Part shown: positions 11,565 through 61,535 of the stretch, one piece after another | Layout of the letters: the number at the start of each line of letters is the position of its first letter | Position numbering within the stretch: position 1 is the first letter of the stretch | Assembly (NCBI GenBank): GCA_039809265.1 | Contig: JBDHUR010000001.1 | Span: forward strand, 5,914 to 69,913 | Reading direction: 5' to 3' | Length of the DNA stretch: 64,000 nt | Origin: Minisyncoccia bacterium | Lineage (GTDB): Bacteria > Patescibacteriota > Minisyncoccia > Phycocordibacterales > UBA9973 | Position numbers and translations under genes: made by a program | The notes under the pieces: generated by a model | What the model saw: the letters and a program-made list of their open reading frames with translations, nothing else | The model's database searches: none | Told to the model about the DNA's origin: nothing

Positions 11565-11747
11565 ACAAATATATAGTATCATTTCTTTTGGGCAGAGGAA
11601 GAAAAACATTGTGGATAAATGCGCGAGAAAAAGTTTTTGACTTTTCTGCGTTTTTTTGATAGCATAGTGAACATCAAGTCGGTCGCGAACCCGACTTTTT
11701 TTAATAAAATTTAATACTGCCTGCCTACGCAGGAAACAATAAAATAT

Positions 11748-13043
11748 ATGTTAGACCTAAAAACAATGAAATCTGCTCTTGAACAGCTTGAAGAAGAGCG
11801 AAAAATACCAAAAGAAAAGATCATAGAAGCCATAGAACAAGCACTTGCTGCTGCCTACAAGAAAGACTACGGTAAAAAAGGCCAGATAATCCGCGCAAAA
11901 TTTGATACAGATACAGGAAAAACAGACTTCTACCAAGTAAAGATAGTGGTAGACGACACTACTGCACGCATACCTAAAGACGGCGAAAGCGAGGAAGAAA
12001 TGCCAGAGGAGGTAGAGGGAGACGACCGTGTACGCTTCAATCCAGAGCACCATATACTGCTGGAAGATGCGAAGATAATGAAAAAGGACGCCGAAGTAGA
12101 AGACGAAATGATATTCCCTCTTGAAGGCAAAGACGATTACGGCCGCATTGCTGCCCAGACGGCAAAGCAAGTTATCATACAGCGTATCCGCGAAGCAGAA
12201 CGCGGCGCAGTGATAGACGAATACGGCACAAAGGAGGGCGAGATAATAAACGGTATAGTATCAAAAGTAGAGAGAGGCAATATATATGTAGACTTCAACC
12301 GAGCTTCAGGCGTAATACCTTTTGAAGAGCAAATCCCGGGCGAACACTACCGTCGAGGCGACAGAATAAAGGCTTATCTCTACGCAGTAGAGGAATCTCC
12401 TCGTGGAGTAAACTTGCGCCTGTCCCGCAGCCACCCGAAACTTATAGAAAAACTTTTTGCAATGGAAGCACCAGAAATAGCCAGCGGCGTGGTAGAGATA
12501 AGGTCCATAGCTCGCGAAGCTGGTTCCAGAAGCAAAATAGCAGTTGCCACCAACGACGAACACATAGACCCAGTCGGCGCATGTGTGGGACAAAAAGGTG
12601 TCAGAGTAACAACAGTTATGAATGAGTTAAACGGAGAAAAGATAGACATCATACCTTGGTCTGAAGACCCGATGACATTTGTAGCCAACTCTCTGTCCCC
12701 AGCAAAAGCTCTTGATATAGAGATAAACGAAGACGAACGCAAAGCATCTATAGAAGTGGCAGACGACCAGCTTTCCCTAGCTATCGGCAAAGGCGGACAA
12801 AATGTACGACTTGCAGCAAAGCTAACTGGCTGGAGAATAGACATCAAAGGCATAAAGGGAGAAGAAATGGATAGCGATGAAGACATAGCAGACGATGACG
12901 AAGGATTTGTAAAGCTCTCTGACCTGAAAGAAGATGCGGGAGAAAACGTCGCGGACGAAGATAACACGGAAACAGAAGCTATCGCGGACGAGATGATGGC
13001 AAGCGAGCCAGAAGTAGAAGTAACAGAGGAAAAAGAAGAATAA
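11748..13043 (+). CDS. nusA: Transcription termination/antitermination factor NusA
   Basis: 431 aa; N-terminal domain, S1, two KH motifs (GxxG: 'GQKGVRV', 'IGKGGQNVRLA'), acidic C-terminal tail. Confidence 0.85.
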   Translation: MLDLKTMKSALEQLEEERKIPKEKIIEAIEQALAAAYKKDYGKKGQIIRAKFDTDTGKTDFYQVKIVVDDTTARIPKDGESEEEMPEEVEGDDRVRFNPEHHILLEDAKIMKKDAEVEDEMIFPLEGKDDYGRIAAQTAKQVIIQRIREAERGAVIDEYGTKEGEIINGIVSKVERGNIYVDFNRASGVIPFEEQIPGEHYRRGDRIKAYLYAVEESPRGVNLRLSRSHPKLIEKLFAMEAPEIASGVVEIRSIAREAGSRSKIAVATNDEHIDPVGACVGQKGVRVTTVMNELNGEKIDIIPWSEDPMTFVANSLSPAKALDIEINEDERKASIEVADDQLSLAIGKGGQNVRLAAKLTGWRIDIKGIKGEEMDSDEDIADDDEGFVKLSDLKEDAGENVADEDNTETEAIADEMMASEPEVEVTEEKEE

Positions 13044-14884: not shown

Positions 14885-15925
14885 ATGAAAATAGACATAA
14901 AGAAACTAGAAAAAAGCCAGGTAGAAATAACTGGAGAGATTGGGGCAGAAAAATTCGCTTTGTACCGCCCACAAGCTGTAGAGATAATAGGCAAAGACAT
15001 AGAAGTAGACGGCTTCCGCAAAGGCAAAGCTCCAGCGGAAATCATAGAAAAGAAAATACTCCCTTCTGCAATACTAGAGGAAATGGCCGAGCTTGCCATT
15101 AGCGAAGCATATCCAAAGATATTGAAAGAGAACAAGATAGACGCCATCGGCAGACCGGAAGTACTCATAACAAAGCTTGCTCTGGACAACCCTTTGGGCT
15201 TCAAGATAGTAACCGCTGTCATGCCGGAAGTTAAACTTGGCGACTACAAAAATGCTTGGAAAAAAGTAAAACAAGAAAATGCTGAGCCGGCTACCGACAA
15301 AGAAGTAGAAGATGCGATACTTGAAGTCCGCCATATGCGCGCACACAACGAACTTCATAAAAATGATAAACCGGGCGAGCACACTCCGCACGACCCAATA
15401 AAAGACGAAGACTTGCCAGAGCTGACAGACGAATATGTACAAAGCTTTGGCCCATTTAAAACGGTAGACGAATTTCGGGCAAAGATGAAAGAAAATCTTA
15501 CTTTAGAAAAAGCCGACAGAGCAAAAAGCAAATCTCGCGCAGAACTTGTAGAGGAACTTTTGAAAGATGCCGAGCTTGATGTACCGCAAGTCATCATTGA
15601 CTCTGAGATAGATAAAACTATATTCAAAGTGAAAACTGATGTAGAACAAGCTGGCATAAAATACGAGGACTACCTAAAACAAATAAACAAAAAGGATGAG
15701 GAAATCCGCACAGAAATCGCTCCTGATGCTGAAAAACGAGCAAAGCTAGAAATAGTTTTGCAAGCTATTGCAGAAAAGGAAAACCTAAAGCCAGATGAGA
15801 AAGCAGTAGAAGAGCAAGTCTCACATCTGCTAGAACACTACAAAGGCGCAGACCCAATTCGTACCAAAGTTTACATAGAGACGATAATGAAAAACGAGCT
15901 GGTCTTCAACTTCTTGGAGAAGTAA
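14885..15925 (+). CDS. tig: Trigger factor, short form lacking the FKBP/PPIase domain
   Basis: 346 aa; N-terminal ribosome-binding signature 'VDGFRKGKAP'; upstream of clpP as in tig-clpP operons; too short for a PPIase domain. Confidence 0.75.
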   Translation: MKIDIKKLEKSQVEITGEIGAEKFALYRPQAVEIIGKDIEVDGFRKGKAPAEIIEKKILPSAILEEMAELAISEAYPKILKENKIDAIGRPEVLITKLALDNPLGFKIVTAVMPEVKLGDYKNAWKKVKQENAEPATDKEVEDAILEVRHMRAHNELHKNDKPGEHTPHDPIKDEDLPELTDEYVQSFGPFKTVDEFRAKMKENLTLEKADRAKSKSRAELVEELLKDAELDVPQVIIDSEIDKTIFKVKTDVEQAGIKYEDYLKQINKKDEEIRTEIAPDAEKRAKLEIVLQAIAEKENLKPDEKAVEEQVSHLLEHYKGADPIRTKVYIETIMKNELVFNFLEK

Positions 15926-23279: not shown

Positions 23280-24002
23280 TTAACTCATAGCATCATAGTA
23301 TTCACATATATGCCTAGTGGCGAAATACCGTTTGCGTACACCTTGAACGATGACCTCTTTCAGCTTCTTGTCTATATCCCATTTATTCTCGTCATTGAAC
23401 CAAAGCATGTGCGTTACTTCCCTTTTTAGACAAAGAAAAAATTTGTTGCTATCTTTCGGTCGAACATTCTTTGAGATAAAAATAGAATACTTCTTAAGCT
23501 TAACGCTGTCATCGTCTATGTGCATAGAGTACAGCTTTATCGGCTTGCGGCCTTGCTCTTCCCAATAAGGCATGGAAACAGTAAATGGATGATGCGATGA
23601 GAGCAAAGACTTCACCTCATAATTATTTGGCACAGCAATATCGCTTACAAAGTAGTACCCTCGGCCGTCTCGCAAGAAATAATACTTTGAAAAATTCCTT
23701 GAGTTTTCATTCACTAAGCTGAAAATAATGTTTAGCTTCTTATCCTTCGGCATCTCATAATAATGTTTGTACTTGTTGAGGATGCCACCGTAGCTGGATT
23801 TCTCCAAGTTTAGCAGTATCTTTGCGGGAGCTTTAGAGATAAGGACTTTGTTTTTCATGTAAAGTTCCGGGTGAATGGACTGCGGTATCTCTATACAAGT
23901 AGAAGGAACAGTACTTGTTGTGTCTGGTTCTACCAGCGACAAGTTTTGGTAAGGATTTGACAGGTCATTTATGCTGACGAGGCAAGCTTGAATTTGTATC
24001 AT
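23280..24002 (-). CDS. Hypothetical protein (240 aa)
   Basis: Intact ORF between tRNA genes; Lys/Tyr-rich; no recognised motif. Confidence 0.5.
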   Translation of the reverse strand: MIQIQACLVSINDLSNPYQNLSLVEPDTTSTVPSTCIEIPQSIHPELYMKNKVLISKAPAKILLNLEKSSYGGILNKYKHYYEMPKDKKLNIIFSLVNENSRNFSKYYFLRDGRGYYFVSDIAVPNNYEVKSLLSSHHPFTVSMPYWEEQGRKPIKLYSMHIDDDSVKLKKYSIFISKNVRPKDSNKFFLCLKREVTHMLWFNDENKWDIDKKLKEVIVQGVRKRYFATRHICEYYDAMS

Positions 24003-24059: not shown

Positions 24060-24500
24060 TCAATATGTTATATTTGGGATCAATTTTACCCTAGCGGTAC
24101 GAGTAGGTATATGGATATACACACAATACAAATCTGCTTGCCACTCCCCCTCTATGGCTTTTTGGATTAAGTACGTTTGTATTGTCCTTAAGAACTTACG
24201 GACTTTTATTGAGTGCATATTTTCCTCTGGACGAAAATATGTCTGTTTTGATTTTTCCGTAAATTCAACGCTGCTACCACCCGTTTCATATGAAACGGGT
24301 GGTAGCGTTACACATGAAACAGCTTTAACTTCTATAAAATATATCTTTCTGTCTTTTGAAGCGACAATATCAATCTCACCCCATTTCTTTGTATAGTTAC
24401 GCTCTATAACCTTGAAACCTTTTGAAATAAGATATTTGCAAGCAATATCCTCGCCTAGTTCCCCTATTCTTTGAGTTTTTGATGTAAATACCTTTGGCAT
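24060..24500 (-). CDS. yraN: YraN/UPF0102-family (PD-(D/E)xK-type) endonuclease-like protein carrying an in-frame palindromic insertion
   Basis: 146 aa; 'GEDIACKYLISKGFKVIERNY...GEIDIVA...IYFIEVKA' matches UPF0102; ~25-aa loop insertion coincides with the 34-bp palindrome. Confidence 0.65.
   Translation of the reverse strand: MPKVFTSKTQRIGELGEDIACKYLISKGFKVIERNYTKKWGEIDIVASKDRKIYFIEVKAVSCVTLPPVSYETGGSSVEFTEKSKQTYFRPEENMHSIKVRKFLRTIQTYLIQKAIEGEWQADLYCVYIHIPTRTARVKLIPNITY
24273..24306. repeat. 34-bp perfect palindrome gctaccacccgtttcat|atgaaacgggtggtagc inside the yraN-like coding sequence
   Basis: Read directly; 17-bp arms with zero mismatches; core gtttcatatgaaac. Confidence 0.85.
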
Positions 24501-24518
24501 ATTATTTAAATATTACCT

Positions 24519-24547
24519 GTTTCATATGAAACTGTTTCACGTGAAAC
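24519..24547. promoter_or_regulatory. Two adjacent palindromic sites (gtttcatatgaaac and tgtttcacgtgaaaca) in the yraN-like promoter: candidate operator
   Basis: 14- and 16-bp perfect palindromes, centres 15 bp apart, 19-47 bp upstream of the minus-strand start codon; same core as the intragenic palindrome. Confidence 0.4.
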
Positions 24548-24812
24548 AATTTGTATATAAAAACTGTTAATTTTAAGTGTCCTAGAGATATATTCTGAAA
24601 AATGCTTATTTTGTAAGGGTATTTTAGTTTTAGACTTTTATAAACATTTCTTAAAAGTCATTTTGTAAAGGAAATTATGTGTCTTTTATGCACAAAGTAC
24701 ACAGAGTTATCCACAGTTTGTTGGTAAATATGGGTAAAAATGTGGATTAAAGGACACTTGCATATGCAAAGTTTTAATAGAATGCTGTCACAAGCTGTAC
24801 AAAAGGTCGTTG

Positions 24813-24883
24813 TGCGGCTAGGGAGAATCGAACTCCCGTCTCATCCTTGGCAAGGACGTGTTCTACCACTAAACCATAGCCGC
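24813..24883 (-). tRNA. tRNA-Gly (anticodon GCC), CCA not encoded
   Basis: Acceptor gcggcta/tagccgc; anticodon stem cgtcc/ggatg, loop ttgccaa; T-arm gggag-ttcgatt-ctccc. Confidence 0.75.
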
Positions 24884-24994
24884 AAAAATACAACAGCTGA
24901 ATTGTACTATTTTTCTAAAATAAACGCAATTATTTCTTGTTATATTTACACAATTTGATAAATAACATATAATTAAACACATTAAAAAATAATC

Positions 24995-25066
24995 GCACCC
25001 GTGGTGAAATGGATATCATACCGGTCTTCGGAACCGTTGTTGGGGGTTCGAATCCCTCCGGGTGCA
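24995..25066 (+). tRNA. tRNA-Arg (anticodon UCG), CCA not encoded
   Basis: Acceptor gcacccg/cgggtgc; D-stem gtga/tcat; anticodon loop cttcgga (U33, anticodon tcg); T-arm ggggg-ttcgaat-ccctc; 72 nt. Confidence 0.6.
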
Positions 25067-25081
25067 CAAAACTTTGGCTTT

Positions 25082-26587
25082 ATGAGCCACGACATAACAA
25101 AACCAATAAATAATAAACTTATACCCAGAGAAGTGCTCGGGGTAGTGGAGACGCTAGAGAAAGCGGGATTTGAAGCGTACTTGATCGGCGGATGCGTACG
25201 AGATCTTATTCTAGGCAGCACACCAAAGGACTGGGACGTAACAACCAACGCTGTCCCTGAGCAGATAGTTTCTTTGTTTTCAAAGACAGTTTACGAAAAT
25301 GACTTTGGGACAGTGGCCGTTATAGACGAATCATTGGACGTTAACCCAAAATTAAAGGCCATAGAAGTAACGCCTTATAGAACAGAAGGGAAATATAGTG
25401 ATTTTCGTCATCCAGATAAAGTATCTTTTAGTAAAGACATAAAGGACGACCTGCAAAGACGAGACTTCACGGTCAATGCGCTAGCCTACAACCCATCTAA
25501 AGGACATTTATTGGACTTATACGACGGTATAAAGGACATAAAAGACAGAAGGCTACGAACTGTGGGGGAAGCCTCTTTGCGCTTCACAGAGGACGCTTTA
25601 CGCATGATGCGTGCTATTCGCTTCTCCTGCCAGCTTGGCTTCACCATATCTTCCGAAACCATAGTAGGCATAACAGAAAATGCACCCCTCTTGAAGAATA
25701 TCTCCATGGAACGTATCCGGGACGAATTTATAAAAATAATAAATTCACCAGAACCTATGGTTGGGGTGGGAATGCTTGCCAAACTTGAACTTTTGCATTA
25801 CTTCGTGCCAGAGCTTGAAGAGGGTATAGGCTGCGAACAAAAAGGTGAGCACATATACGACGTTTTTGAACACATGCTTCACGCGCTAGAACATGCAAAG
25901 GAAAAAGGCTGGGATTTTGACATACGTTTGGCTGCGCTCTTGCACGACATAGGCAAGCCACGCACCAGACGCTGGGACGGCACAAAAGCAGGCGGAAGAG
26001 GGAAGTACACTTTCTATGGACACGAAGTAGTCGGAGCACGAATGGTAAAAAAAATATTAGAACGCTTACGCTTACCAAAAGATATTTCAGAGAAAGTAGA
26101 GAAACTTGTGCGATACCACATGTTTTTCTCTGATACAGAGACCATTACTTTGTCTGCTGTACGCCGTACCATAGTAAATGTCGGAAGGGAAAATATCTGG
26201 GAACTTATGAAGGTTCGTGAATGCGATAGAGCAGGGATGAGAAAGCCGGAAGCCCCATACCGCCTTCGTAAATACCACGCTATGATAGAGGAGGCTTTGC
26301 GGGCACCAACTTCTGTAGCAATGCTAAAGATAAAAGGAGAAACGCTGAAAGAGCTTGGCATAGAGCCAGGGCCAAGAATGGGCTTCATCCTGCACGCTTT
26401 GCTTGAAGAGTGTCTGGAAGATGATGCGAAAAATGGAATAGCATATTTGGAATCCCGTGCACTTGAACTAAATACTTTGCCAGATGCAGACTTGCGCAAA
26501 CTCGGCGAGAAGGGGAAGGAGAAGAAAGAGGAAGTAAACGAATCAGAGATAACCAAACTACACGAGAGACATAAGGTTAGAAAATAA
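25082..26587 (+). CDS. cca: CCA-adding tRNA nucleotidyltransferase with C-terminal HD domain
   Basis: Start at MSHDITKP (ORF-track start lies inside the tRNA); 'GGCVRDLILG...DWDVTT' pol-beta head, 'RRDFTVNALA', HD motif 'LLHDIGK'. Confidence 0.8.
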   Translation: MSHDITKPINNKLIPREVLGVVETLEKAGFEAYLIGGCVRDLILGSTPKDWDVTTNAVPEQIVSLFSKTVYENDFGTVAVIDESLDVNPKLKAIEVTPYRTEGKYSDFRHPDKVSFSKDIKDDLQRRDFTVNALAYNPSKGHLLDLYDGIKDIKDRRLRTVGEASLRFTEDALRMMRAIRFSCQLGFTISSETIVGITENAPLLKNISMERIRDEFIKIINSPEPMVGVGMLAKLELLHYFVPELEEGIGCEQKGEHIYDVFEHMLHALEHAKEKGWDFDIRLAALLHDIGKPRTRRWDGTKAGGRGKYTFYGHEVVGARMVKKILERLRLPKDISEKVEKLVRYHMFFSDTETITLSAVRRTIVNVGRENIWELMKVRECDRAGMRKPEAPYRLRKYHAMIEEALRAPTSVAMLKIKGETLKELGIEPGPRMGFILHALLEECLEDDAKNGIAYLESRALELNTLPDADLRKLGEKGKEKKEEVNESEITKLHERHKVRK

Positions 26588-39687: not shown

Positions 39688-41625
39688 ATGGCTGTAAACC
39701 CAGAAAAATTTGATTCGTATCACAAATACAAAAAAGCAAAAGACAAATCCGAGTCGATGGAACTGGACGAAAAAATAAAAAAACCTTTCAATAAAATGAT
39801 TAAGGTTCTATGGCAAGATGCGGTGGAAAGCAAGCATATTGACCCTACTAAGATAACTAAAGAACACAAAATGAACCCAGAAAATACATGGCGAAGACTG
39901 ACAAAAAACGACAAATTTGTATTTGCTGGCGCGCCAGCAGAGATTATAAATTTGAACAAAACAAAGGGTGAAGTTAGGCTAAAAACTCGCATCGGGGAAA
40001 AGACTTATAAAAAGAGAGATTTCATAGAGTTACTAAGGGGTGAGGAAATTCAAACTCAAGCCGAAAACCTGGAGACAAACAAGAAAACAACTGAAAAGAT
40101 TGCCCAATATATAAAATTCAACGGCATAGACAGAGTAGTTGTTCATGGTGAGCCTAGATACACAGAGAACCCAGACACCGGAGAAGGAGAACCCGTAAAG
40201 AGTGCTGAGCTGGACTTTGACACAGAAGTTGCTCTTTATTTCTTGAACTACAATCAAGACTTTACTTCAAGCGACACTGTATACAATACTGGGGCAAGCA
40301 CGGAGTTTGTCATGAAAGGCGAAAAATCATCTTTTACAAATTCTGAGATGGCTAAAAACGGCAAGGAAAGAAAAACACCGCTTAAAAAAGGCGCTCTTGT
40401 TTTACACATTGATACCGGTGAAAACAACCTTTCCATAGAAAAAGCCGGACAAGCAGTTGCGGCTTACGCAGACCATCACAAAGAGATCGACAATATAAGG
40501 ACATCTGCCGCTGAAATGGTCTTCAACATAATGACGGAAGCAGAAGCATATAAACCAGAGCCGTGGATGAGGCAGGTTGTGAGATTTGTAAATGAAGTAG
40601 ACAATCTATCATATGCGGACAAGAAAAATTTTACTCCTGGATATTTCCAAGAAATATGGCCAAAGACGCTATATGCGCTTCACAAATTCCTGCCGTACAA
40701 ACAAGTTATAAACTGGATAAGAGAGGGCCGAAACCCGGAAAATCCCTTCACCGAAACAGAACTTGATACTCTAACCGTAGAAACCAACGCAACAATAAAA
40801 AACAAAGAAACGGGTAAATACGAAAAGAAGCAGATACCATTGCGCGAGCTTGTAAATGTACGTGGCAAGCATGCTTTTGATTCCATGAAATATTTGAACG
40901 CTGCCACAAGGAACATGGGTGCCCAACACATAAAACAAGAAAGCAAAGAACTTGGTAGGGTTGCATTTGCAACTATGGACAGTGAAGTGGACATAAGAGG
41001 CAACAAAATATCTGGAACGTATCTCAAAGAAGGATACTTGGCGGCAAAAGCCAAAGGGTATGATACTTACGTATCATACAGCCAGAGCAACGACAGATTT
41101 TTCATAAACTCGACAAACAAGGACTTGCGTCCAATAATAAAAGAGGTAAAGAAAATTGTACCGAACGCAAAGCTGATACGAGGGGTTATGATACTGCCGG
41201 GAAAAGATGGCAACGGTGGCAAACTCACAAAAGAAAAGCTTTTAGAAATCTGCGGCCTGATGGATAAAGACACAATGTTATATAAGTATGACCCAAAACC
41301 TAAAATCTTGAGTCCTAAAGCGCAAGCATTTCAAAAAGAGAAGGAGAGAACAAGCCTCGAGAGAGAGATTGCGGACTTGGAAAAAAGAATAAAAGAGAAA
41401 ATGAAGAATATAAAAATTCTGCAGGAAGGCTTGGAGATAAACAAAGCTTATAACGAGGTCCTGGATGAAGAAATAAAAGAAATAGATACAAACAAGCGGG
41501 AAAAAGCGCGCGTTGAAGAAAATGAGGCGATAAAAGAAACTTTGTCCAGAGCTAGGAAGTTACTAAACACAAAAGGAGTAAAGCCAGACGAAGCGCTTAC
41601 CATAAGACCAAGGGAGGAAAAATAA
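39688..41625 (+). CDS. Hypothetical cytoplasmic protein (645 aa) with Lys/Glu-rich coiled-coil C-terminus
   Basis: Intact ORF; no signal peptide; no recognised catalytic motif. Confidence 0.5.
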   Translation: MAVNPEKFDSYHKYKKAKDKSESMELDEKIKKPFNKMIKVLWQDAVESKHIDPTKITKEHKMNPENTWRRLTKNDKFVFAGAPAEIINLNKTKGEVRLKTRIGEKTYKKRDFIELLRGEEIQTQAENLETNKKTTEKIAQYIKFNGIDRVVVHGEPRYTENPDTGEGEPVKSAELDFDTEVALYFLNYNQDFTSSDTVYNTGASTEFVMKGEKSSFTNSEMAKNGKERKTPLKKGALVLHIDTGENNLSIEKAGQAVAAYADHHKEIDNIRTSAAEMVFNIMTEAEAYKPEPWMRQVVRFVNEVDNLSYADKKNFTPGYFQEIWPKTLYALHKFLPYKQVINWIREGRNPENPFTETELDTLTVETNATIKNKETGKYEKKQIPLRELVNVRGKHAFDSMKYLNAATRNMGAQHIKQESKELGRVAFATMDSEVDIRGNKISGTYLKEGYLAAKAKGYDTYVSYSQSNDRFFINSTNKDLRPIIKEVKKIVPNAKLIRGVMILPGKDGNGGKLTKEKLLEICGLMDKDTMLYKYDPKPKILSPKAQAFQKEKERTSLEREIADLEKRIKEKMKNIKILQEGLEINKAYNEVLDEEIKEIDTNKREKARVEENEAIKETLSRARKLLNTKGVKPDEALTIRPREEK

Positions 41626-41666
41626 TCAACACCTTATTTTGCAGATTTTAAGTATAATACAATTAT

Positions 41667-44600
41667 ATGTCATCACCTGAAAACGAGAAAAACATTATAC
41701 AGAAATCATTAAACAAAACCAGTGAGCAGCTCGATACGGAAAAGAAAGAGCTGGAAAAACTGGCCAGGGAACTTGAAGAAAAGAAAAAATTGTTTGAGAA
41801 AAATCACGGATTATTCTCTCAAGAAGAATTCGACAAATTTGTTGATAGTGGTGAAGTTTCCCAGGAAAAACTTGAGCTTCTAGCAGATAAGATAAAAAAC
41901 CGTGAATCGCTTAGCGACTTTGAAAAAGCCATACACGCCGGCGAATACACTGGGGCTGAAATAGCACAGATAATCCAGCATAAATACCCTTCGCCCGAAC
42001 AAAAGAAGAATCTCAAAAAGAAAACACGCGAGAATACCAAGAAGCTGGCAGAAGAAGAGGGAGGGGCGCAGAAGGAACAGGCAGAAAAAAACGGCAAAAA
42101 AGTACAAGAAGACGAGAATAAGAAAGAATCTGAAAAAAAGAACAAGGGAAACAAAGACAGAGAGCTTACCGAGCAAAAAGAGAAAAACGACATAGCGCAA
42201 GAATTCCGCAAAAGCTTTGGCTTTGATCCGAATGAAAACTTGGAAAGCTTTAAGGATTTGGAGCCTGGGGCACAACGCTTGGCATACAAGAGCTTACAAA
42301 ATGTGCAGGCAAGCATGGTACCAAAACTTGCAGAAGAAATATATGAGACCAAGCAAAAAAGTTTCTTAAACTATTTCCGCAAAAGCGCTTTAATAGAAGG
42401 CAACAAAAAGGAAGCTGCCGAACAGTTGTCAAAGGCTGGATACAGCAAATATGAAAAATATCTGAAGCAGATAGTTGGCGGAATAAAGAACACGGGACTT
42501 GAAGGCGTAGCAGACGGCGCCGTCGGCATCCGCATGGAGTACGCGCACGGATTGGAAAATCTGACAGAAGAAGAGAAAAAGGAGCTTGTTTACTTCAACA
42601 GAGCTGCGACAAAGTTTGGAGACATTCCTCGCGAATGGGCATTTGACGATGCAAACAAAGTAGAGAAATTTCTCGCCGGCGAATTTTCTTCCAGAAACAA
42701 CAAGCAAATGTACCAAGAAGCAAAGGAAGCTTACGAAAGAGAAAAGGAAGGCTTGGCCAAAATAGTTTTAGAAAAATTTGGCGGAGATGAAGAACGCGCT
42801 ACAAACTACTTGCGGATGATAGATGCAAACGTGGAGTTCAGCCAGCGTGTTGCCAGCGACCCAAATGCAATGGCAGCACTTGGTGCACTAAGTGCACAAG
42901 GCAATGCAATCAGCAAAAAGTCAGCCATGAGTGCTGCTTCATTTGGAATTGGCTACCTCATGCGTGGCGGAGCAGCCACAGCTGGACTTGCGAACTACGC
43001 AGGACTTGCGGTTGCCCCAGTGCTTGGAGCTTTGCGCGGGTTGTACAAAGGCAGACAGAATATACGTGAAGCAGAGAGGAATGTCCGCACAGGTGAAGAG
43101 TTGAAAGAATCCCAAAAAACAAAGTTTAACACTTTGACCGGCAAGGCAAAAGAGGAAGCTCTAAAAAGAGAGCTGGTGGAAAAAATGCGCGCGACATACA
43201 GGAAAACAGAGGAAACAAAAACTTCAGCAAAAGGCAAAGAGATGCAAGTGGGTCTCCGTCAAAAGCTGGAGAATGCTTTGGACTCGCTGGAGTCAGCCCA
43301 AGGACAGCTAGAAAAAATAGATGCAGAAATAGCAAATGAAAAAGATGCTGTAAGGCTAAATGAGCTACATTTAAACCGCGAGAAAGTAGCTTCTGTGGTA
43401 GAAATGCGCCAGACATTTGTGAACAACCGCTTGGTGCAAGTGCAAAAGCTTCTGGACAGTGGCGACCTAGACTTCGGCATGAAGAGCGAGCGCTTTGCCA
43501 ACGAATACGCCATGCGCGATGTGCTAAACAAAGCCTACGCTGTGGCAATATCCGCACCGCTTGGAGAGAACAATAAAAATTTGAATGCCTTTTATAAAAA
43601 GTTTAATGTATTTTTTGCCGAGCAGCTGGAAGCTGAGCAGGGTATAGCAGCTAGAAAAACAGAAAATGTAAAAGCTGTAAAAGACGCGATGATCCGCCAT
43701 GCTGTAGTAAAAGGTGCTGTGATGAGTTTCATCTTTGCCGGACTTGGCTTTGAAGTACGAGACTTGTACAACAACTCTGAACTTCACAACAAAGTTTCTG
43801 AATTCTTTGGCAGATGGAAAGCGGACAACCTTGAGGCAAACTCTGCGCCAATAAAAGCTGAAGTTGGCGCGGATGATGAAGCCACAGAAAAAGTCCGCGA
43901 GATGGGCAAGAGGTGGGTAGACCTAGACCAATACAAACCAAAGTCACCACTTTCGCATGGAGACATATCAAAAGGTGTAACTGTTGGGCACGAACACTTG
44001 GAACAAGCAACAGAGAAAATAGAAAACATCCGCGGTATCAGCCAAGACTTTGCAGTGACTTTGGGCAAGAACGGCGTGCCAGCCCAACTTGAACGCGTCT
44101 TCCATGAAATATCTTTGGATCACATGGAAGTGCCAAACAATGCCCTGAACGAAGAAGTCGGCGCCAAAAGCCTGAACATGGCAGCAAACCTTGTGCGTTT
44201 GTCTGAGGGACACAACGTACTCGGCGCAAGCACCGAATCTTTCAAAAACTCTTTCTCTTACGACAAAGGGATCGGTACTTTGAAGATAATAAACCACGAA
44301 AAATTCAACAACCTTTTGGATGTACTAAAAACACACTCTGACAAGCTTTGGGACAACGGCACTTTGCAAAAAGGCGCAGCAGGCGAACTTTCAAATATAA
44401 AAACAGAAACTTGGCTCAAGATAGCCCACGCAGACGACCTAGACAAAGCACTTGGGGGAGATGGGCAGGAAGTTGTGACAGGAATACACGGCCACGATGA
44501 AATAACAGAGAAAGATATTACTGATTTCCATAAAAGTGCGATAGTAGAAAAAACTCGTGCCCTGAGAGAAAAACTTGCCGGCAAGCTGGCAGAACATGTA

Positions 44601-45284
44601 GACAAAGCAGCAGATGTTACAACAAACACAAAGACAGAATTTGGCATAGATCCAGATACTAGACAGCAAAGCTGGTGGGATGGCAACGAGGTCAGCAGCA
44701 CATCTGCAACAGAAGACACAATAAATACAGCACCGAGCCAAGATTTGGGTATAGACCCTGACTCCAAACAACAAAGCTGGTATGGCGGAAATGAAGAAAC
44801 CCAAACTCCAAGCGTACCCGCAGAAAGTCCAAAGATAGAAGAAGTTACGGGAGGCAATAGCAGACACGAGGTGATACCAGAAAAAACAAATACTGCAGAA
44901 GAATATAGTAACGAAGTAGCGGAGAAAGCAGTAAAGATACCTGTGGAAACACAAAACCACAGTATACTTTCAAATATCACAGGCAAGGAAGACCTGAGCG
45001 ATAGCCGTTTGTGGCAGCGAGCACATGACATGCCTGTAGCAGATATATTCAAACAAACAGAAACATATATACGAGATGAGGCAAGTGACCGTTCCTACAA
45101 GAAACTTTGGGCATACACGCAGATGCTAAACAGATCAAGCGGGGTTTCTATTTTGAAGAATGAAACCTTGGAAGACTATTTGTCACGCGCCGGAAAAGTT
45201 TTCACGGAAAGAAACCCTGGCAAGTCCCTAGACTACGTCTACGAACTTTCGCAGAAATACTTGATAGAAGTGGAAACAAAGTAG
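41667..45284 (+). CDS. Giant (1205 aa) charged coiled-coil protein with two hydrophobic segments and internal tandem repeat
   Basis: Intact ORF; K/E-rich; hydrophobic 'AASFGIGYLMRGGAATAGLANYAGLAVAPVLGAL' and 'AVVKGAVMSFIFAGLGF'; repeats 'GIDPDTRQQSWWDGNE'/'GIDPDSKQQSWYGGNE'. Confidence 0.55.
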   Translation: MSSPENEKNIIQKSLNKTSEQLDTEKKELEKLARELEEKKKLFEKNHGLFSQEEFDKFVDSGEVSQEKLELLADKIKNRESLSDFEKAIHAGEYTGAEIAQIIQHKYPSPEQKKNLKKKTRENTKKLAEEEGGAQKEQAEKNGKKVQEDENKKESEKKNKGNKDRELTEQKEKNDIAQEFRKSFGFDPNENLESFKDLEPGAQRLAYKSLQNVQASMVPKLAEEIYETKQKSFLNYFRKSALIEGNKKEAAEQLSKAGYSKYEKYLKQIVGGIKNTGLEGVADGAVGIRMEYAHGLENLTEEEKKELVYFNRAATKFGDIPREWAFDDANKVEKFLAGEFSSRNNKQMYQEAKEAYEREKEGLAKIVLEKFGGDEERATNYLRMIDANVEFSQRVASDPNAMAALGALSAQGNAISKKSAMSAASFGIGYLMRGGAATAGLANYAGLAVAPVLGALRGLYKGRQNIREAERNVRTGEELKESQKTKFNTLTGKAKEEALKRELVEKMRATYRKTEETKTSAKGKEMQVGLRQKLENALDSLESAQGQLEKIDAEIANEKDAVRLNELHLNREKVASVVEMRQTFVNNRLVQVQKLLDSGDLDFGMKSERFANEYAMRDVLNKAYAVAISAPLGENNKNLNAFYKKFNVFFAEQLEAEQGIAARKTENVKAVKDAMIRHAVVKGAVMSFIFAGLGFEVRDLYNNSELHNKVSEFFGRWKADNLEANSAPIKAEVGADDEATEKVREMGKRWVDLDQYKPKSPLSHGDISKGVTVGHEHLEQATEKIENIRGISQDFAVTLGKNGVPAQLERVFHEISLDHMEVPNNALNEEVGAKSLNMAANLVRLSEGHNVLGASTESFKNSFSYDKGIGTLKIINHEKFNNLLDVLKTHSDKLWDNGTLQKGAAGELSNIKTETWLKIAHADDLDKALGGDGQEVVTGIHGHDEITEKDITDFHKSAIVEKTRALREKLAGKLAEHVDKAADVTTNTKTEFGIDPDTRQQSWWDGNEVSSTSATEDTINTAPSQDLGIDPDSKQQSWYGGNEETQTPSVPAESPKIEEVTGGNSRHEVIPEKTNTAEEYSNEVAEKAVKIPVETQNHSILSNITGKEDLSDSRLWQRAHDMPVADIFKQTETYIRDEASDRSYKKLWAYTQMLNRSSGVSILKNETLEDYLSRAGKVFTERNPGKSLDYVYELSQKYLIEVETK

Positions 45285-56636: not shown

Positions 56637-57476
56637 ATGGACAATCAAGAAATTATTCAAAAAATACAAGACCTATATGCTAGCGTTCCTGGTGCGCTAC
56701 AAAAAGCTATAGTTTCTTCAGATTATCAAAACAAAATTGTAGATATAGGCAAAAACAACAAACTAACAGTTGCACAGCTTGGGGACTTGGAACTTGTCAC
56801 AACATTTGTCATGCTCGGAGCAACTTCACCTAATAATTATAAAAGTGAGATTGCCGAAAAGCTTGGAATACAGGACGAAGCCGTAGTGAATAAAATAGTG
56901 GATGATGTAAACACACAAATATTTTCTACTATTCGTAATGAGCTAAAGGAAATAAATACACCAATAGAAGAAGAGGATGATGATAGCGAGACTTTTTGGC
57001 ATCACAGCGAGGAAGAGATGGATGCTGCCGGGTTTCAAGCAAACAACACGGCTGAAACAAACACCACATCCATACAGACTGTAAGCGCTAAAGACCAAGC
57101 GGAGCTAGAGAAATCTGGAATAGAGATAGAGAAAACACGCCCAACTTCCGAGGAATATGTGAAGGCAACAGTACTACCAAACTCTGGACTACCAGCATCT
57201 GGACTTCAGACACGCGAAAATATCCTAAATGGCATAGAGCACCCTACGGAAAGCAAGCCTTCATTTATAGACAAGCAATTCTCTGGTGTTTATACCATGC
57301 CAACAAAAGAGACAACATATACACCAAAACCTGTGGCGCCTGCGCAGACAGGCGCCACAGGTAAAGCAGCTGGCCCCGCTCCAATACCTGCACCAAAAGC
57401 GCCATCGACAGACTTGCCAACAAATACAGCAGGCGAGCCACCAGCAAAAATTGATCCTTATAGGGAAATAATATAA
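56637..57476 (+). CDS. Hypothetical acidic, Pro-rich cytoplasmic protein within the T4SS-like block
   Basis: 279 aa, no TM. Confidence 0.45.
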   Translation: MDNQEIIQKIQDLYASVPGALQKAIVSSDYQNKIVDIGKNNKLTVAQLGDLELVTTFVMLGATSPNNYKSEIAEKLGIQDEAVVNKIVDDVNTQIFSTIRNELKEINTPIEEEDDDSETFWHHSEEEMDAAGFQANNTAETNTTSIQTVSAKDQAELEKSGIEIEKTRPTSEEYVKATVLPNSGLPASGLQTRENILNGIEHPTESKPSFIDKQFSGVYTMPTKETTYTPKPVAPAQTGATGKAAGPAPIPAPKAPSTDLPTNTAGEPPAKIDPYREII

Positions 57477-57493
57477 TAGCTGAAAGCTGCCTT

Positions 57494-57910
57494 ATGCAAT
57501 TCAAAGTCCCACAATTTATAGATGTTGAAGACAAAATTTTTGGACCTTTTACGTTCCGACAATTTTTGTATCTGGCTGGAGGAGCGGGGATATGCTTTTT
57601 ACTTTACAAAACTCTGCCCCTCGTTGTAGCTATAATTATAATGTTGCCGGTCATAGCTCTTTCTCTTGCTTTGACTTTCTATAGAGTAAACGAAAAACCT
57701 TTCATATATATACTTGAGGCATATATAGGCTACCTTGGCAAAAACAAGCTGTACGTTTGGAAAAAAGCTCCGCCGGAAAAGAAAAGCACAGACAAGACAG
57801 ACGCTGCACAGAAACCGGCAGCAGAGAGTTACGTGCCAAAGCTTTCTGAAAGCAAGCTAAAAGACATATCTTGGAGTTTGGATGTGCTGGATGTAAATAA
57901 AGGCAATTAA
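57494..57910 (+). CDS. Small two-TM protein, VirB3/PrgI-like
   Basis: 138 aa; 'FTFRQFLYLAGGAGICFLLY' resembles the VirB3 'L(T)RP..FLGVP' region; lies upstream of virB4 as in most T4SS loci. Confidence 0.45.
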   Translation: MQFKVPQFIDVEDKIFGPFTFRQFLYLAGGAGICFLLYKTLPLVVAIIIMLPVIALSLALTFYRVNEKPFIYILEAYIGYLGKNKLYVWKKAPPEKKSTDKTDAAQKPAAESYVPKLSESKLKDISWSLDVLDVNKGN

Positions 57911-57939
57911 CAATTAAAAAACAAAATTGGTGATACAAT

Positions 57940-58605
57940 GTGCCATATATGGCTTTGAATGCTAGAGCAACTCAAGATTTTGTACCGATACAAGAGGTCA
58001 GAGACGGCGTCATAATACTAAAAGACGGCGGGGTACGAGCTGTTTTGCTTGCTTCTTCTATAAACCTCTCTCTCAAGTCCGCGGATGAACAGCAGGCTAC
58101 CCTTTTACAGTTTCAGACTTTTTTGAACTCGTTAGACTTTTCTACACAAATATCTGTCCAGTCCCGAAGGCTAGACATACGTCCATACTTAAACTTGCTG
58201 GAAAACAGGATGAAAGAACAGCTTGAGCCGTTGCTTAAAATACAAACAAGGGAGTACATAGAGTTTATAAGGTCTTTTACAGATAGTGTAAATATAATGA
58301 CAAAAAGCTTTTTCATAACCGTACCGTACACCCAACCTGCACTTTCTGCCGGCGGAGCAGTTAGCGGACTGAAGAATTTGATCCCTGGGCAAAAAAGCCA
58401 GCCGGATAAAAAAAGCACTGAGCAGCTGGACTTTGAAGAGAAAAGGAGTCAACTGGACCAGCGCATAGGGGTAATACAGCAGGGTTTGTCTCGTGTAGGT
58501 ATCCGCACAGTGGAGCTTGGGACAGAAGAGATAGTGGAGCTATTTTACAAAATTTTCAACCCAGGAGAAGTTACACAATCTATAAAACTAGATACGCAAA
58601 GCTAA
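57940..58605 (+). CDS. VirB4/TrbE N-terminal domain encoded as a separate ORF
   Basis: 221 aa; 'VRDGVIILKDGGVRAVLLASSINLSLKSADEQQ' matches the VirB4 N-terminal 'LEDGSIMSIARIDGVAFELEE' region; 'FFITVPY' matches VirB4 'LTLVVYP'. Confidence 0.6.
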   Translation: MPYMALNARATQDFVPIQEVRDGVIILKDGGVRAVLLASSINLSLKSADEQQATLLQFQTFLNSLDFSTQISVQSRRLDIRPYLNLLENRMKEQLEPLLKIQTREYIEFIRSFTDSVNIMTKSFFITVPYTQPALSAGGAVSGLKNLIPGQKSQPDKKSTEQLDFEEKRSQLDQRIGVIQQGLSRVGIRTVELGTEEIVELFYKIFNPGEVTQSIKLDTQS

Positions 58606-58609
58606 CAAC

Positions 58610-60445
58610 ATGGCAATTTTAGACTTCTTAAAAAAGAAAACAGACGCTGGAAATAATAAAAGGGCGGTTTTGCCTGTTTTACCTACAGAAATATACGAAG
58701 CGGCAACATTAGAGTTCAAAGATATTATAGCGCCTTCGGCGCTAAAGATAGAGCCGAAGGCGCTAAACCTTGGAGACAAAATGGCACGCACTTTCTTTGT
58801 CATATCTTATCCAAGGTATTTGTCAGACAACTGGTTCTCTCCGATCATAAATTTGGACAAGATATTTGATGTATCCATCTTCATACACCCCATAGAAACA
58901 GCCAAAATTTTGCGAGACTTCCAGAAAAAGGTAGCGGAAGTGCAAAGCCAGATAAGCATCCGCGAAAGCAAAGGTCTGGTGCGAGACCCGATGCTGGACA
59001 CTGCATACCAAGACCTAGAATCTTTGCGAGACAACCTACAGCAAGCGCAAGAGAAGATATTTGATGTTGGGCTTTATATTACAGTTTACGGCAATAACGA
59101 AAACGACTTGTTCAAGATAGAAAACGAGATAAAGTCTATATTGGAATCAAAGCTGGTATACTTGAAACCTGCCCTTTTCCAGCAAGAGGAAGGCTTTGAC
59201 TCTGTGATACCCATAGGCAATGACATACTGAACGTGCACCAAAAACTAAACTCCGAACCGCTTTCATCCATCTTCCCATTTGTTTCTTTCGACCTAACTT
59301 CCGACAAAGGAATACTTTACGGGGTGAATAGGCACAACTCTTCACTTGTTATATTTGACAGATTTTCTCTTGAAAACTACAACTCTATCATCTTTGCAAA
59401 GTCAGGCTCTGGAAAATCTTATGCTACGAAGCTGGAAATACTTCGTACACTCATGTTTGACACAGAAGTTATTGTCATAGACCCGGAAAGAGAGTATGAG
59501 TATTTAGCTGAAGCAGTGGGTGGAAGATACTTCAACATATCACTGTCTTCGCAACATCACATAAACCCTTTTGACTTGCCGGTGCCGCGAGAAGACGAAA
59601 CCCCGGCAGATGTGCTTCGTTCTAATGTCATAAACCTCGTTGGCCTATTCCGTATCATGCTTGGCGGATTGACCCCAGAAGAAGACTCTATAGTAGACAG
59701 AGCAATAACAGAAACTTACGCAATCAAAGACATAACTGCAGACTCCGACTTCTCCAACATTGAACCGCCGCTTTTGACAGACTTTGAGATGGTGCTTGCT
59801 GGCATGGATGGATCAGAGTCTCTGATACAACGCCTAACCAAGTTCACTAGAGGCTCTTGGTCTACATTTCTAAACCAGCCATCAAACGTAGACATAAATA
59901 AAAAATTCGTAGTGTTCTCCGTGAGAGACATGGAAGATGAGCTGAAGCCGGTAGCAATGTACATAGTCACGCACTTTATCTGGAACGCCGTGAGAAAGAC
60001 ACTGAAAAAACGCCTCTTAGTGGTGGATGAAGCTTGGTGGATGATGAAGTCAGACGACACAGCCTCTTTCCTTTACTCTATAGCCAAGCGAGGCAGAAAG
60101 TACTACTTGGGACTTTGCACCATAACCCAAGACGTGGGAGACTTCATGCGCAGTCCATACGGCGTACCCATCGTTACAAACAGCTCCCTACAACTCCTAT
60201 TGAAACAGTCTCCGTCTTCTATAGACCTGCTGCAAAAAACCTTTAATCTTACAGACGAAGAAAAATATCTGCTACTGGAATCCAATGTCGGGGAAGGGAT
60301 ATTCTTTGCCGGACTAAAGCATGTTGCTATAAAGATAATATCTTCATATACAGAAGACCAAATAATAACTTCCGACCCATCGCAGGTGTTAGCAATAAAG
60401 AAATCAAAGGATGAACTAGAAGCAGCGGAACGCGGTGTAAAGTAA
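58610..60445 (+). CDS. VirB4/TraC/CagE-family T4SS ATPase (middle plus C-terminal ATPase domain)
   Basis: 611 aa; 'FFVISYPRYLSDNWFSPII' (VirB4 'IYSFREYP' region), Walker A 'AKSGSGKS', Walker B 'LLVVDEAWWMM', downstream 'LGLCTITQD' motif. Confidence 0.8.
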   Translation: MAILDFLKKKTDAGNNKRAVLPVLPTEIYEAATLEFKDIIAPSALKIEPKALNLGDKMARTFFVISYPRYLSDNWFSPIINLDKIFDVSIFIHPIETAKILRDFQKKVAEVQSQISIRESKGLVRDPMLDTAYQDLESLRDNLQQAQEKIFDVGLYITVYGNNENDLFKIENEIKSILESKLVYLKPALFQQEEGFDSVIPIGNDILNVHQKLNSEPLSSIFPFVSFDLTSDKGILYGVNRHNSSLVIFDRFSLENYNSIIFAKSGSGKSYATKLEILRTLMFDTEVIVIDPEREYEYLAEAVGGRYFNISLSSQHHINPFDLPVPREDETPADVLRSNVINLVGLFRIMLGGLTPEEDSIVDRAITETYAIKDITADSDFSNIEPPLLTDFEMVLAGMDGSESLIQRLTKFTRGSWSTFLNQPSNVDINKKFVVFSVRDMEDELKPVAMYIVTHFIWNAVRKTLKKRLLVVDEAWWMMKSDDTASFLYSIAKRGRKYYLGLCTITQDVGDFMRSPYGVPIVTNSSLQLLLKQSPSSIDLLQKTFNLTDEEKYLLLESNVGEGIFFAGLKHVAIKIISSYTEDQIITSDPSQVLAIKKSKDELEAAERGVK

Positions 60446-60491
60446 CAGTTTTCCCTCGTTTTTTTGCTCAAAGTATTTTATACTTAGATAG

Positions 60492-61529
60492 ATGAAGATA
60501 AGCATATTTGCAAACTCGTTTAGAAAGTTTGCCTTAAAAGCGGTGTTGGCTTTTGCTTTTTTGTCTATACTTATTTCACCAGCCAACGCTTTGGCTCAAT
60601 CTTTGCTTGATTCTTCTTTTACTGCCAACGATGTATCGGTGGAACTTTCACCGGAAATACCGGCACCGAACCAGACTTTGACGATATCTTTAACAAGCTA
60701 CACGGTAGACCTAGATAAAGCGCGAATGACTTGGACACAAGACGGCAAGATAAAAAACAGTGGGACCGGCATAAAAGAGTTCAGTGTGCAAGTGGGTGAC
60801 GTGGGCTCAACAACAACCATAGATGTATCTATAGTTATAAATGGATTGAATAGATTTGACAAAAGGATAGTTGTCAGCCCCTCAGAAGTAGACATGTTGT
60901 GGGAAGCGGTAGACTCTTATGTTCCACCGTTCTATGAAGGAAAAGCACTGCCTTCATCCGAAGCTGTAATAAAAGTTGTGGCAATACCCAACAACAAGAC
61001 AAACAATACCGACATTCAAACCGGCAACTTTGTTTACAATTGGAAAAAGAACTTTGCAGCAGACCAAAGCGCATCTGGCTTTAGTAAAAATAGCTACGTT
61101 TTCAAGGCAAGCTACCTGAATGCAGAAGAAACAATATCTGCAAATGCAGCCTCAGTATCTGGCAACAGTGGCGGGGAAGGAAGCGTAACCATAGTGACAG
61201 GTAAACCTAAAATAATATTCTATGAAGACGCAGCAGGCATCGGCCCTGTATATGCCAGTGCCTTGAACCAAGGCTATAGACTGACCAACAACGAAGCCAC
61301 GGTCGTAGCCGTGCCGTATTTCTTCTCTGTGAGCAATCCTGCCGCCAAAGACTTGCTTTACAGATGGAGCATAAACAACAACAACATAGACACGCCTTCA
61401 CCGGCAAATACACTTGTCATAAAAAGCGCCGGGGAAACAGGACAAGCAAAAGTTGGCTTGCACTTGGAGTCCGCAAGTAAACTTTTCCAATCCATAGACC
61501 AGACATTTTTTGTAGACATAATAAAGTAA
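60492..61529 (+). CDS. Secreted protein (345 aa) in the T4SS-like block
   Basis: Signal peptide 'ALKAVLAFAFLSILISPANALA'; beta-rich composition. Confidence 0.5.
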   Translation: MKISIFANSFRKFALKAVLAFAFLSILISPANALAQSLLDSSFTANDVSVELSPEIPAPNQTLTISLTSYTVDLDKARMTWTQDGKIKNSGTGIKEFSVQVGDVGSTTTIDVSIVINGLNRFDKRIVVSPSEVDMLWEAVDSYVPPFYEGKALPSSEAVIKVVAIPNNKTNNTDIQTGNFVYNWKKNFAADQSASGFSKNSYVFKASYLNAEETISANAASVSGNSGGEGSVTIVTGKPKIIFYEDAAGIGPVYASALNQGYRLTNNEATVVAVPYFFSVSNPAAKDLLYRWSINNNNIDTPSPANTLVIKSAGETGQAKVGLHLESASKLFQSIDQTFFVDIIK

Positions 61530-61535
61530 AGCAGT

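Follow-up and report, generated by a model that had tools for sequence, protein, structure and literature searches.

Introduction

Chromosomal parS/ParB systems have been described in Bacillus subtilis, Caulobacter crescentus, Thermus, and other bacteria, all of which use the same 16-bp palindrome (TGTTTCACGTGAAACA) in copies clustered near the origin region. In the ParABS model, the CTP-dependent clamp protein ParB recognizes parS as a dimer. TGTTTCACGTGAAACA is the Caulobacter parS oligonucleotide of ParB biochemistry and recurs across ParB-parS studies; chromosomal centromeres typically comprise tandem and clustered sites, and an oriC-proximal location is usual for parS. Lin and Grossman reportedly described, in 1998, a B. 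subtilis parS site inside spo0J. The Noc-binding site (NBS, TATTTCCCGGGAAATA) of Firmicutes belongs to the same family of 16-bp palindromes and is recognized by a paralogue of ParB; it differs from parS at two positions (parS-type sites have G2 and A7). Three other kinds of element are relevant to the locus described below, namely, the oriC of Escherichia coli, which lies about 42 kb from dnaA, the LexA SOS box, which is CGAACATATGTTCG in Gram-positive bacteria, and the palindromic elements of Rickettsia. Our literature searches returned nothing on ParB/parS or chromosome organization in Patescibacteria, the candidate phyla radiation, Saccharibacteria, or Parcubacteria.

Here, we analyzed a group of four palindromes upstream of and within a yraN-like gene, in a 64-kb stretch of patescibacterial DNA referred to below as the window. 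By sequence, copy number, and location, this group is a known kind of element, a parS cluster. Like chromosomal parS elsewhere, it has copies within coding sequences and implies a dimeric reader. Unlike known chromosomal parS, it has no parAB operon nearby and is fused to a module of DnaA boxes; its four sites, two of them abutting and two TA centered, crowd into 265 bp; and, across a whole class of Patescibacteria, the copies are embedded at fixed codons of yraN, as well as of cca in relatives. The lineage, the density of four sites in 265 bp, the embedding in yraN/cca codons, and the fusion to DnaA boxes away from dnaA appear to be undescribed in the literature that we searched. We assign a probability of roughly 85% to the reading that the four palindromes form a parS cluster, i.e., a loading and segregation site for ParB (Spo0J), at or next to oriC.

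Results

Four palindromic sites at the yraN locus

The gene and the palindromes are located as follows.

24060 to 24500, minus strand: yraN-like gene, UPF0102, PD-(D/E)xK nuclease fold, 146 aa (Pfam PF02021, E = 1e-16), which hosts two of the sites
24533 to 24548, no strand: perfect 16-bp parS sequence (TGTTTCACGTGAAACA), 16/16 match to the consensus, 33 to 48 bp upstream of the yraN ATG
24518 to 24533, no strand: abutting parS variant (TGTTTCATATGAAACT), perfect 6-bp arms with TA instead of CG at the center
24282 to 24297, no strand: intragenic parS variant (CGTTTCATATGAAACG), TA center, encoding V69-S-Y-E-T73 of YraN
24306 to 24321, no strand: intragenic degenerate parS (CGTTACACATGAAACA), encoding V60-S-C-V-T64, immediately past the catalytic E57-V-K59 strand
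24273 to 24306, no strand: 34-bp perfect palindrome, an inverted repeat with 17-nt arms that are 100% complementary, whose core is the intragenic parS at 24283 to 24296

Upstream of the yraN-like gene, the 14-bp GTTTCATATGAAAC (24519 to 24532) abuts the 16-bp tGTTTCACGTGAAACa (24533 to 24548). Both are perfect palindromes with centers 15 bp apart, as the original prediction had described, and the pair lies 19 to 48 bp upstream of the minus-strand ATG at 24500. A recurrence of the motif within the gene, announced at a distance of 220 bp, is present at 236 bp, start to start, and what had been taken for a half-site at about 24313 to 24320 is a real copy but a full 14-mer (GTTACACATGAAAC, 24307 to 24320) with one arm mismatch. 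Exact matches to TTTCAYRTGAAA number three in the window (24284, 24520, and 24535), over a span of 265 bp, with a fourth copy carrying one mismatch in the same zone. The expected count of exact matches in dinucleotide shuffles is 0.01, and none of 100 shuffles reached three. An occurrence at random frequency, named with the original prediction as its refutation, is clearly not what was observed.

The 34-bp palindrome corresponds to the intragenic site lengthened by 10 bp on each side and encodes LPPVSYETGGS. Ten independent assemblies of the same species are identical from -520 to +450 of the yraN start except for two single-nucleotide polymorphisms; their agreement shows that the palindromes are not an assembly artifact, and their near identity makes population variation uninformative about selection. 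Rfam searches at permissive thresholds returned only two tRNAs, plus subthreshold hairpin artifacts on the 34-bp palindrome. A structured RNA or a terminator was considered and rejected, as there was no Rfam support and no terminator-like site was found.

Identity of the motif

The site at 24533 to 24548 is the sole perfect match in the window to the parS consensus TGTTNCACGTGAAACA. The four sites have 0, 3, 3, and 4 mismatches to the 16-bp consensus, the four mismatches at 24282 to 24297, as read from the sequence, being both outer bases and the TA center. When up to three mismatches are allowed, there are three matches in the window for 0.38 expected, and all three are at the yraN locus. At the positions that discriminate parS from NBS, the parS-type bases are found in 4/4 window sites (G at position 2 and A at position 7) and in the upstream sites of relatives (66/71 for G2 and 71/71 for A7); the window sites are thus not NBS. 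Judged by its sequence, the 16-mer at 24533 to 24548 is a consensus parS, the centromere recognized by ParB, and the other three sites are parS variants, two of them TA centered and one arm mismatched.

Only one of the four sites fits the consensus exactly, and two have a TA center, which counts against the parS reading. Among relatives, TA-centered sites with perfect arms occur 13 times, at equivalent positions, which makes the TA sites of the window a recurrent variant rather than an oddity. The upstream pair resembles LexA-type tandem operators in being a 14-bp dyad with an ATAT-like center, arranged in tandem upstream of a nuclease-like gene. Unlike LexA boxes, it has GTTTCA arms rather than CGAACA, no conserved placement with respect to the start codon, and copies inside two genes.

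Conservation in relatives

We compared 80 yraN loci of species-representative Patescibacteria (Paceibacteria/Nomurabacteria) with up to 10 kb of flank per side, 1.26 Mb in total. These loci contain 228 16-mers with at most two mismatches to parS, whereas shuffles gave 0.6, and all 228 fall between -2416 and +323 of the yraN ATG. The gene itself contains 69 of them (mostly at +179, +203/206, and +64), 87 lie in the 300 bp upstream of it, and 72 are farther upstream, mostly in cca. A site of this quality is found within 450 bp upstream of yraN in 76/80 relatives. Perfect-arm sites (GTTTCA-NN-TGAAAC) number 99, 98 of which are in the yraN-cca zone, while the same arms at any other spacer length occur zero or one time. 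The 99 centers are CG (56), CA/TG (16), TA (13), or others (14), a variation that fits the TTTCA-YR-TGAAA form initially proposed for the motif. A position weight matrix of the best upstream site in 71 relatives reproduces the universal parS, with positions 2 to 15 nearly invariant. Relatives commonly have an additional, weaker site at a distance of 16 or about 26 bp from the main site, which matches the tandem arrangement of the window. The intragenic sites also have orthologous counterparts: the +203/+204 site for 24282 to 24297 and, for 24306 to 24321, the +179 site, found with at most two mismatches in 33/80 relatives.

The neighborhood on the cca side of yraN comprises the following genes.

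24812 to 24883, minus strand: tRNA-Gly(gcc), transcribed toward the noncoding module described below
24995 to 25067, plus strand: tRNA-Arg(tcg), forming a conserved divergent pair with tRNA-Gly(gcc)
25079 to 26587, plus strand: cca, encoding the CCA-adding enzyme (Pfam PolyA_pol and HD), a conserved divergent neighbor

The conserved gene order is xer, exoIII, cca, tRNA-Arg/tRNA-Gly, the noncoding module, yraN, tRNA-Pro/Gly, ZIP, and HU, and cca-yraN synteny is observed in 69/80 relatives. The cluster belongs to this conserved Paceibacteria locus, in which the order is cca, the tRNAs, the DnaA boxes, parS, and yraN, with cca and yraN divergent. In some relatives (L012, L024, L041, L054, and L085), the tRNA-Gly(gcc)/tRNA-Arg(tcg) pair (24812 to 25067 in the window) is inverted as a unit, and the two genes are divergent in both orientations.

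These comparisons bear on two earlier interpretations of the palindromes. According to the first one, they are operators of a dimeric transcription factor that regulates yraN. The two upstream sites do occupy the interval that must contain a promoter, 19 to 48 bp from the ATG, a weak promoter-like match on the minus strand (24530 to 24501) overlaps one of them, and tandem palindromes are typical of repressor operators. The proposed overlap with -10/-35 elements was not confirmed, however, as promoter matches reach only 9/12 and are no more common than chance, with 5 found for 3.7 expected in shuffles. Moreover, the motif is the universal parS 16-mer, and copies are also present inside yraN and cca, up to 2.4 kb away. 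Among relatives, anything from 16 to 234 bp separates the site from the ATG, while its distance to a DnaA box clusters at 124 to 126 bp. The search for a regulator gene nearby in related genomes gave none that is conserved, the syntenic protein-coding genes being xer, exoIII, cca, yraN, ZIP, and HU. The variable ATG distance, the copies in two genes, the chance-level promoters, and the lack of a conserved regulator make a yraN operator very unlikely. What stands of that interpretation is an array of one dyad motif, far above chance, for a dimeric DNA-binding protein, which is most likely ParB rather than a transcription factor of yraN.

The second interpretation invoked mobile palindromic repeats, i.e., MITE- or REP-like elements or in-frame insertions of the Rickettsia type, in both the promoter and the gene. 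As for Rickettsia palindromic elements and in-frame MITE insertions, palindromic DNA is tolerated here in frame in a protein loop, and the intragenic copy is part of a 34-bp perfect palindrome within a protein insert of variable length. Unlike those elements, the sites are neither dispersed nor mobile and occupy orthologous positions in all relatives. There is no copy in the window or its flanks outside the 265-bp zone and none outside the yraN-cca zone in the 20-kb flanks of the 80 relatives. The sites are at orthologous codons (+179 and +203) even though YraN identity between the genomes is only about 50%, and neither terminal repeats nor target duplications were found. Strict orthology and the lack of dispersed copies effectively exclude mobile repeats.

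Selection on the DNA of intragenic sites

YraN has thousands of homologues, and several of the closest matches are named Nomurabacteria, Paceibacterota, or Patescibacteria. In their alignment, VS[RHYC]ET appears once or twice in an insert of variable length, and spurious N-terminal extensions, "MFHVKH" and "VSRETF" among them, correspond to parS read as protein. The Pfam PF02021 match of the window protein ends at residue 60, exactly at the start of the first intragenic site. An AlphaFold2 model has a mean pLDDT of 78.9 and a confident core, with residues 66 to 87 below 50. This low-confidence loop holds the second intragenic site (24282 to 24297) together with the palindrome extension. YraN probably tolerates the copies because they fall in a variable loop that the model suggests is disordered.

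The intragenic copies might be the by-product of a functional YraN peptide, VSxET, with only the upstream sites acting as DNA signals. To its credit, V-S-x-E-T is widespread in this YraN subfamily, and in the intragenic sites of relatives, parS position 7, which is the last base of the Ser codon, is unconstrained (TCA/TCT/TCG/TCC), which suggests that some of these copies are weak or decaying. Codon usage speaks against it. We compared 52 V[ST][RHYC]ET peptides of yraN genes with the background usage of long open reading frames (ORFs): Val is encoded by GTT in 51/52 (background, 33%), Glu by GAA in 51/52 (background, 75%), and Thr by ACA in 33/52 (background, 38%), whereas Ser is never AGY (background, 29%) and Arg never AGR (background, 45%). 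The central residue can be R, H, Y, or C, amino acids that differ chemically and have only the codon form YRT in common. The second copy is in the variable-length loop of pLDDT below 50, and the same in-frame embedding occurs in the unrelated cca gene. A by-product of peptide function is thus highly unlikely. The bias of synonymous codons toward parS indicates that selection acts on the DNA, and it is this selection that, on the evidence of codon choice, keeps the intragenic copies in yraN and in the cca genes of relatives.

In relatives (L013 to L089), the cca gene contains one to three parS copies at -720 to -1600 of the yraN start; they read in frame as V-S/T-x-E/V-T and are often paired at a distance of 27 bp. 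The cca gene of the window (25079 to 26587) contains none. A third intragenic parS-like site, AGTTTCTCGTGAAACA, is present at +64 in 14 loci, where it encodes K-F-L-V-K-H/Q near the YraN N terminus. The window YraN has KYLISKG at the equivalent of +64 and no parS-like site there.

Context of a probable origin

DnaA boxes were counted at up to one mismatch to TTATCCACA. When the window is divided into 500-bp bins, three boxes occur in just one of them, 24500 to 24999, and are located 140 to 200 bp from parS.

24686 to 24749, no strand: DnaA-box cluster, comprising TTATGCACA at 24686, TTATCCACA at 24707 (perfect), and TGTGGATTA at 24741

Across the 80 loci, the bin from -250 to -1 of yraN contains 116 boxes for a background of 0.11 per bin, an enrichment of about 13-fold, and at least one box is located upstream of yraN in 79/80 relatives. 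In the largest group, 23/72 relatives, the box-to-parS distance is 124 to 126 bp, and the intervening sequence is strongly conserved. The conserved upstream parS is part of a noncoding module of about 150 bp that includes DnaA boxes.

A strongly conserved noncoding segment between the tRNA and yraN (24548 to 24811 in the window; -270 to -15 in relatives L011 to L090) has an ordered composition. Its elements are, in order, TGTGGATAAC, 11 nt, TGTTTATAA, AGGACA, about 14 nt, and TGTCTTTT, followed by AT-rich DNA, TTGTAAAATAAGGATATTTT, TAAAAGACA, and parS. The module is probably oriC, far from dnaA; alternatively, the dyad AAAGGACA...TGTCTTTT could be a tRNA terminator.

Of the 39 relatives with 8 kb available on either side, 36 show GC skew turning from negative to positive at the yraN start. 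When the window is taken together with its left extension, the cumulative G-C curve reaches its minimum at about 23.7 kb, within a plateau spanning 23.2 to 25.7 kb, and has a nearly equal shoulder at 9 to 11 kb; skew remains positive from about 31 kb to 64 kb. The genes jag-yidC-rnpA-dnaA-dnaN follow directly past the right end of the window, which places dnaA about 43 kb to the right of the parS sites. Like oriC clusters such as that of E. coli, the cca-yraN spacer combines TTATCCACA-type boxes, AT-rich DNA alongside, and a skew sign change away from dnaA. Unlike E. coli-type oriC, it has only one to three recognizable boxes and competes with a second cluster flanking dnaA, and neither an unwinding element nor DnaA-trios were identified in the spacer. 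With moderate confidence, we place the replication origin at the cca-yraN spacer or immediately beside it.

Imperfect DnaA boxes also flank dnaA, with three located upstream of the gene and another three in the interval before dnaN (15552 to 15584 and 16984 to 17150 of L094, equivalent to about 67.1 kb and 68.5 to 68.7 kb in window coordinates). Together, they form a candidate second origin or autoregulatory cluster, and the box clusters found there mean that the origin assignment is not exclusive. A gene-strand switch at 11609 to 11748, with minus-strand genes to the left and nusA and others on the plus strand to the right, has a single perfect DnaA box at 11610 and a shoulder in cumulative skew. 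It represents a weaker alternative origin position, or the edge of an inverted block.

Search for the reader of the sites

ParB, ParA, and DnaA were sought near the sites with regular expressions, by Pfam searches of 15 window proteins, and through the Pfam labels of both 10-kb extensions, and a home-built ParB hidden Markov model was run against all stop-free frames of the window and of 96 loci. Neither parB nor parA was found in the window plus 10 kb on each side (about 84 kb) or within 10 kb of yraN in the 80 relatives, a coverage that we estimate, assuming a genome of about 1 Mb, at less than 10% of this genome and about 2% of each relative's genome. A search with a consensus ParB sequence retrieved named proteins that are mostly of the Firmicutes type (Clostridia-like), and none was named as Patescibacteria.

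It is conceivable that parS-like sites are read by a noncanonical protein, such as YraN itself, in a lineage that has lost ParB. In its favor, no ParB was found in any sequence examined and yraN is always adjacent, but an exact 16-bp consensus is expected only if the conserved ParB helix-turn-helix still reads it, and the ParB search was confined to the small genome fractions given above. To our knowledge, YraN is also widely found in bacteria without any known link to parS. We therefore see only a slim chance that the lineage lacks ParB and that another protein reads parS. From the exact retention of the 16-bp consensus, we infer that a canonical ParB, the cognate reader of this lineage, is present.

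A 240-aa ORF without Pfam match (23280 to 24002, minus strand) is located between yraN and the ZIP transporter gene. It is absent from 80/80 relatives, which identifies it as a species-specific insertion adjoining the putative centromere. Its product was considered as a local binder of the sites and rejected because of this absence.

Discussion

By analogy with characterized ParABS systems, the sites would support ParB binding, clamp spreading, and origin function. ParB would nucleate on the perfect site at 24533 to 24548 and more weakly on the three variants, and would then close as a CTP-bound clamp and slide onto neighboring DNA. A partition complex would result, flagging the newly replicated origin region for segregation and SMC loading. 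Repression of yraN, if there is any, would follow incidentally from ParB occupancy. As the identity of the sites points to a well-understood element, they need not be pursued as targets of a new regulator.

A broader arrangement can be proposed tentatively, at odds that we rate slightly below even. In Paceibacteria/Nomurabacteria-type genomes, the origin would not be at dnaA but at the cca-tRNA-[DnaA boxes-parS]-yraN module, where initiator sites and centromere would be fused within about 150 bp. Additional parS copies would be written into the frames of both flanking genes as VS[RHY]ET, and a physical coupling would link replication initiation, ParB/SMC loading, and the expression of a nuclease-fold gene.

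The combination of parS and DnaA boxes is a landmark with which Patescibacteria genomes may be oriented and given a start coordinate, and with which growth rates may be read from coverage as origin-to-terminus ratios. It also guides the choice of DNA for assays of the ParB and DnaA proteins of this lineage. Furthermore, the locus offers a clean natural example of a DNA signal in coding sequence, held by selection on synonymous codons, for which the cost to the protein appears to be a floppy loop.

Other genes of the region deserve mention. A type IV secretion- or conjugation-like set, with PrgI, TraC-like, VirB4/TraG-type ATPase, and type IV secretion system pilin genes, is present between the putative centromere region and dnaA (56637 to 63365, plus strand, and 5096 to 13441 of L094). 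Two large adjacent ORFs of 645 and 1205 aa, at 39688 to 45284 on the plus strand, have no Pfam match at E <= 0.001. The start of the 1205-aa protein looks coiled-coil-like by eye; it was not recognized as SMC.

Finally, perfect palindromes that extend 5 to 11 bp past the parS core on each side occur at 7/102 perfect-arm sites, for about 0.1 expected. They include the one at 24273 to 24306 in the window and those at about -121 in L068, -48 in L015, -72 in L023, and -28 in L083. Such extensions may have arisen by hairpin-templated (template-switch) mutation, or they may provide extra protein contacts.
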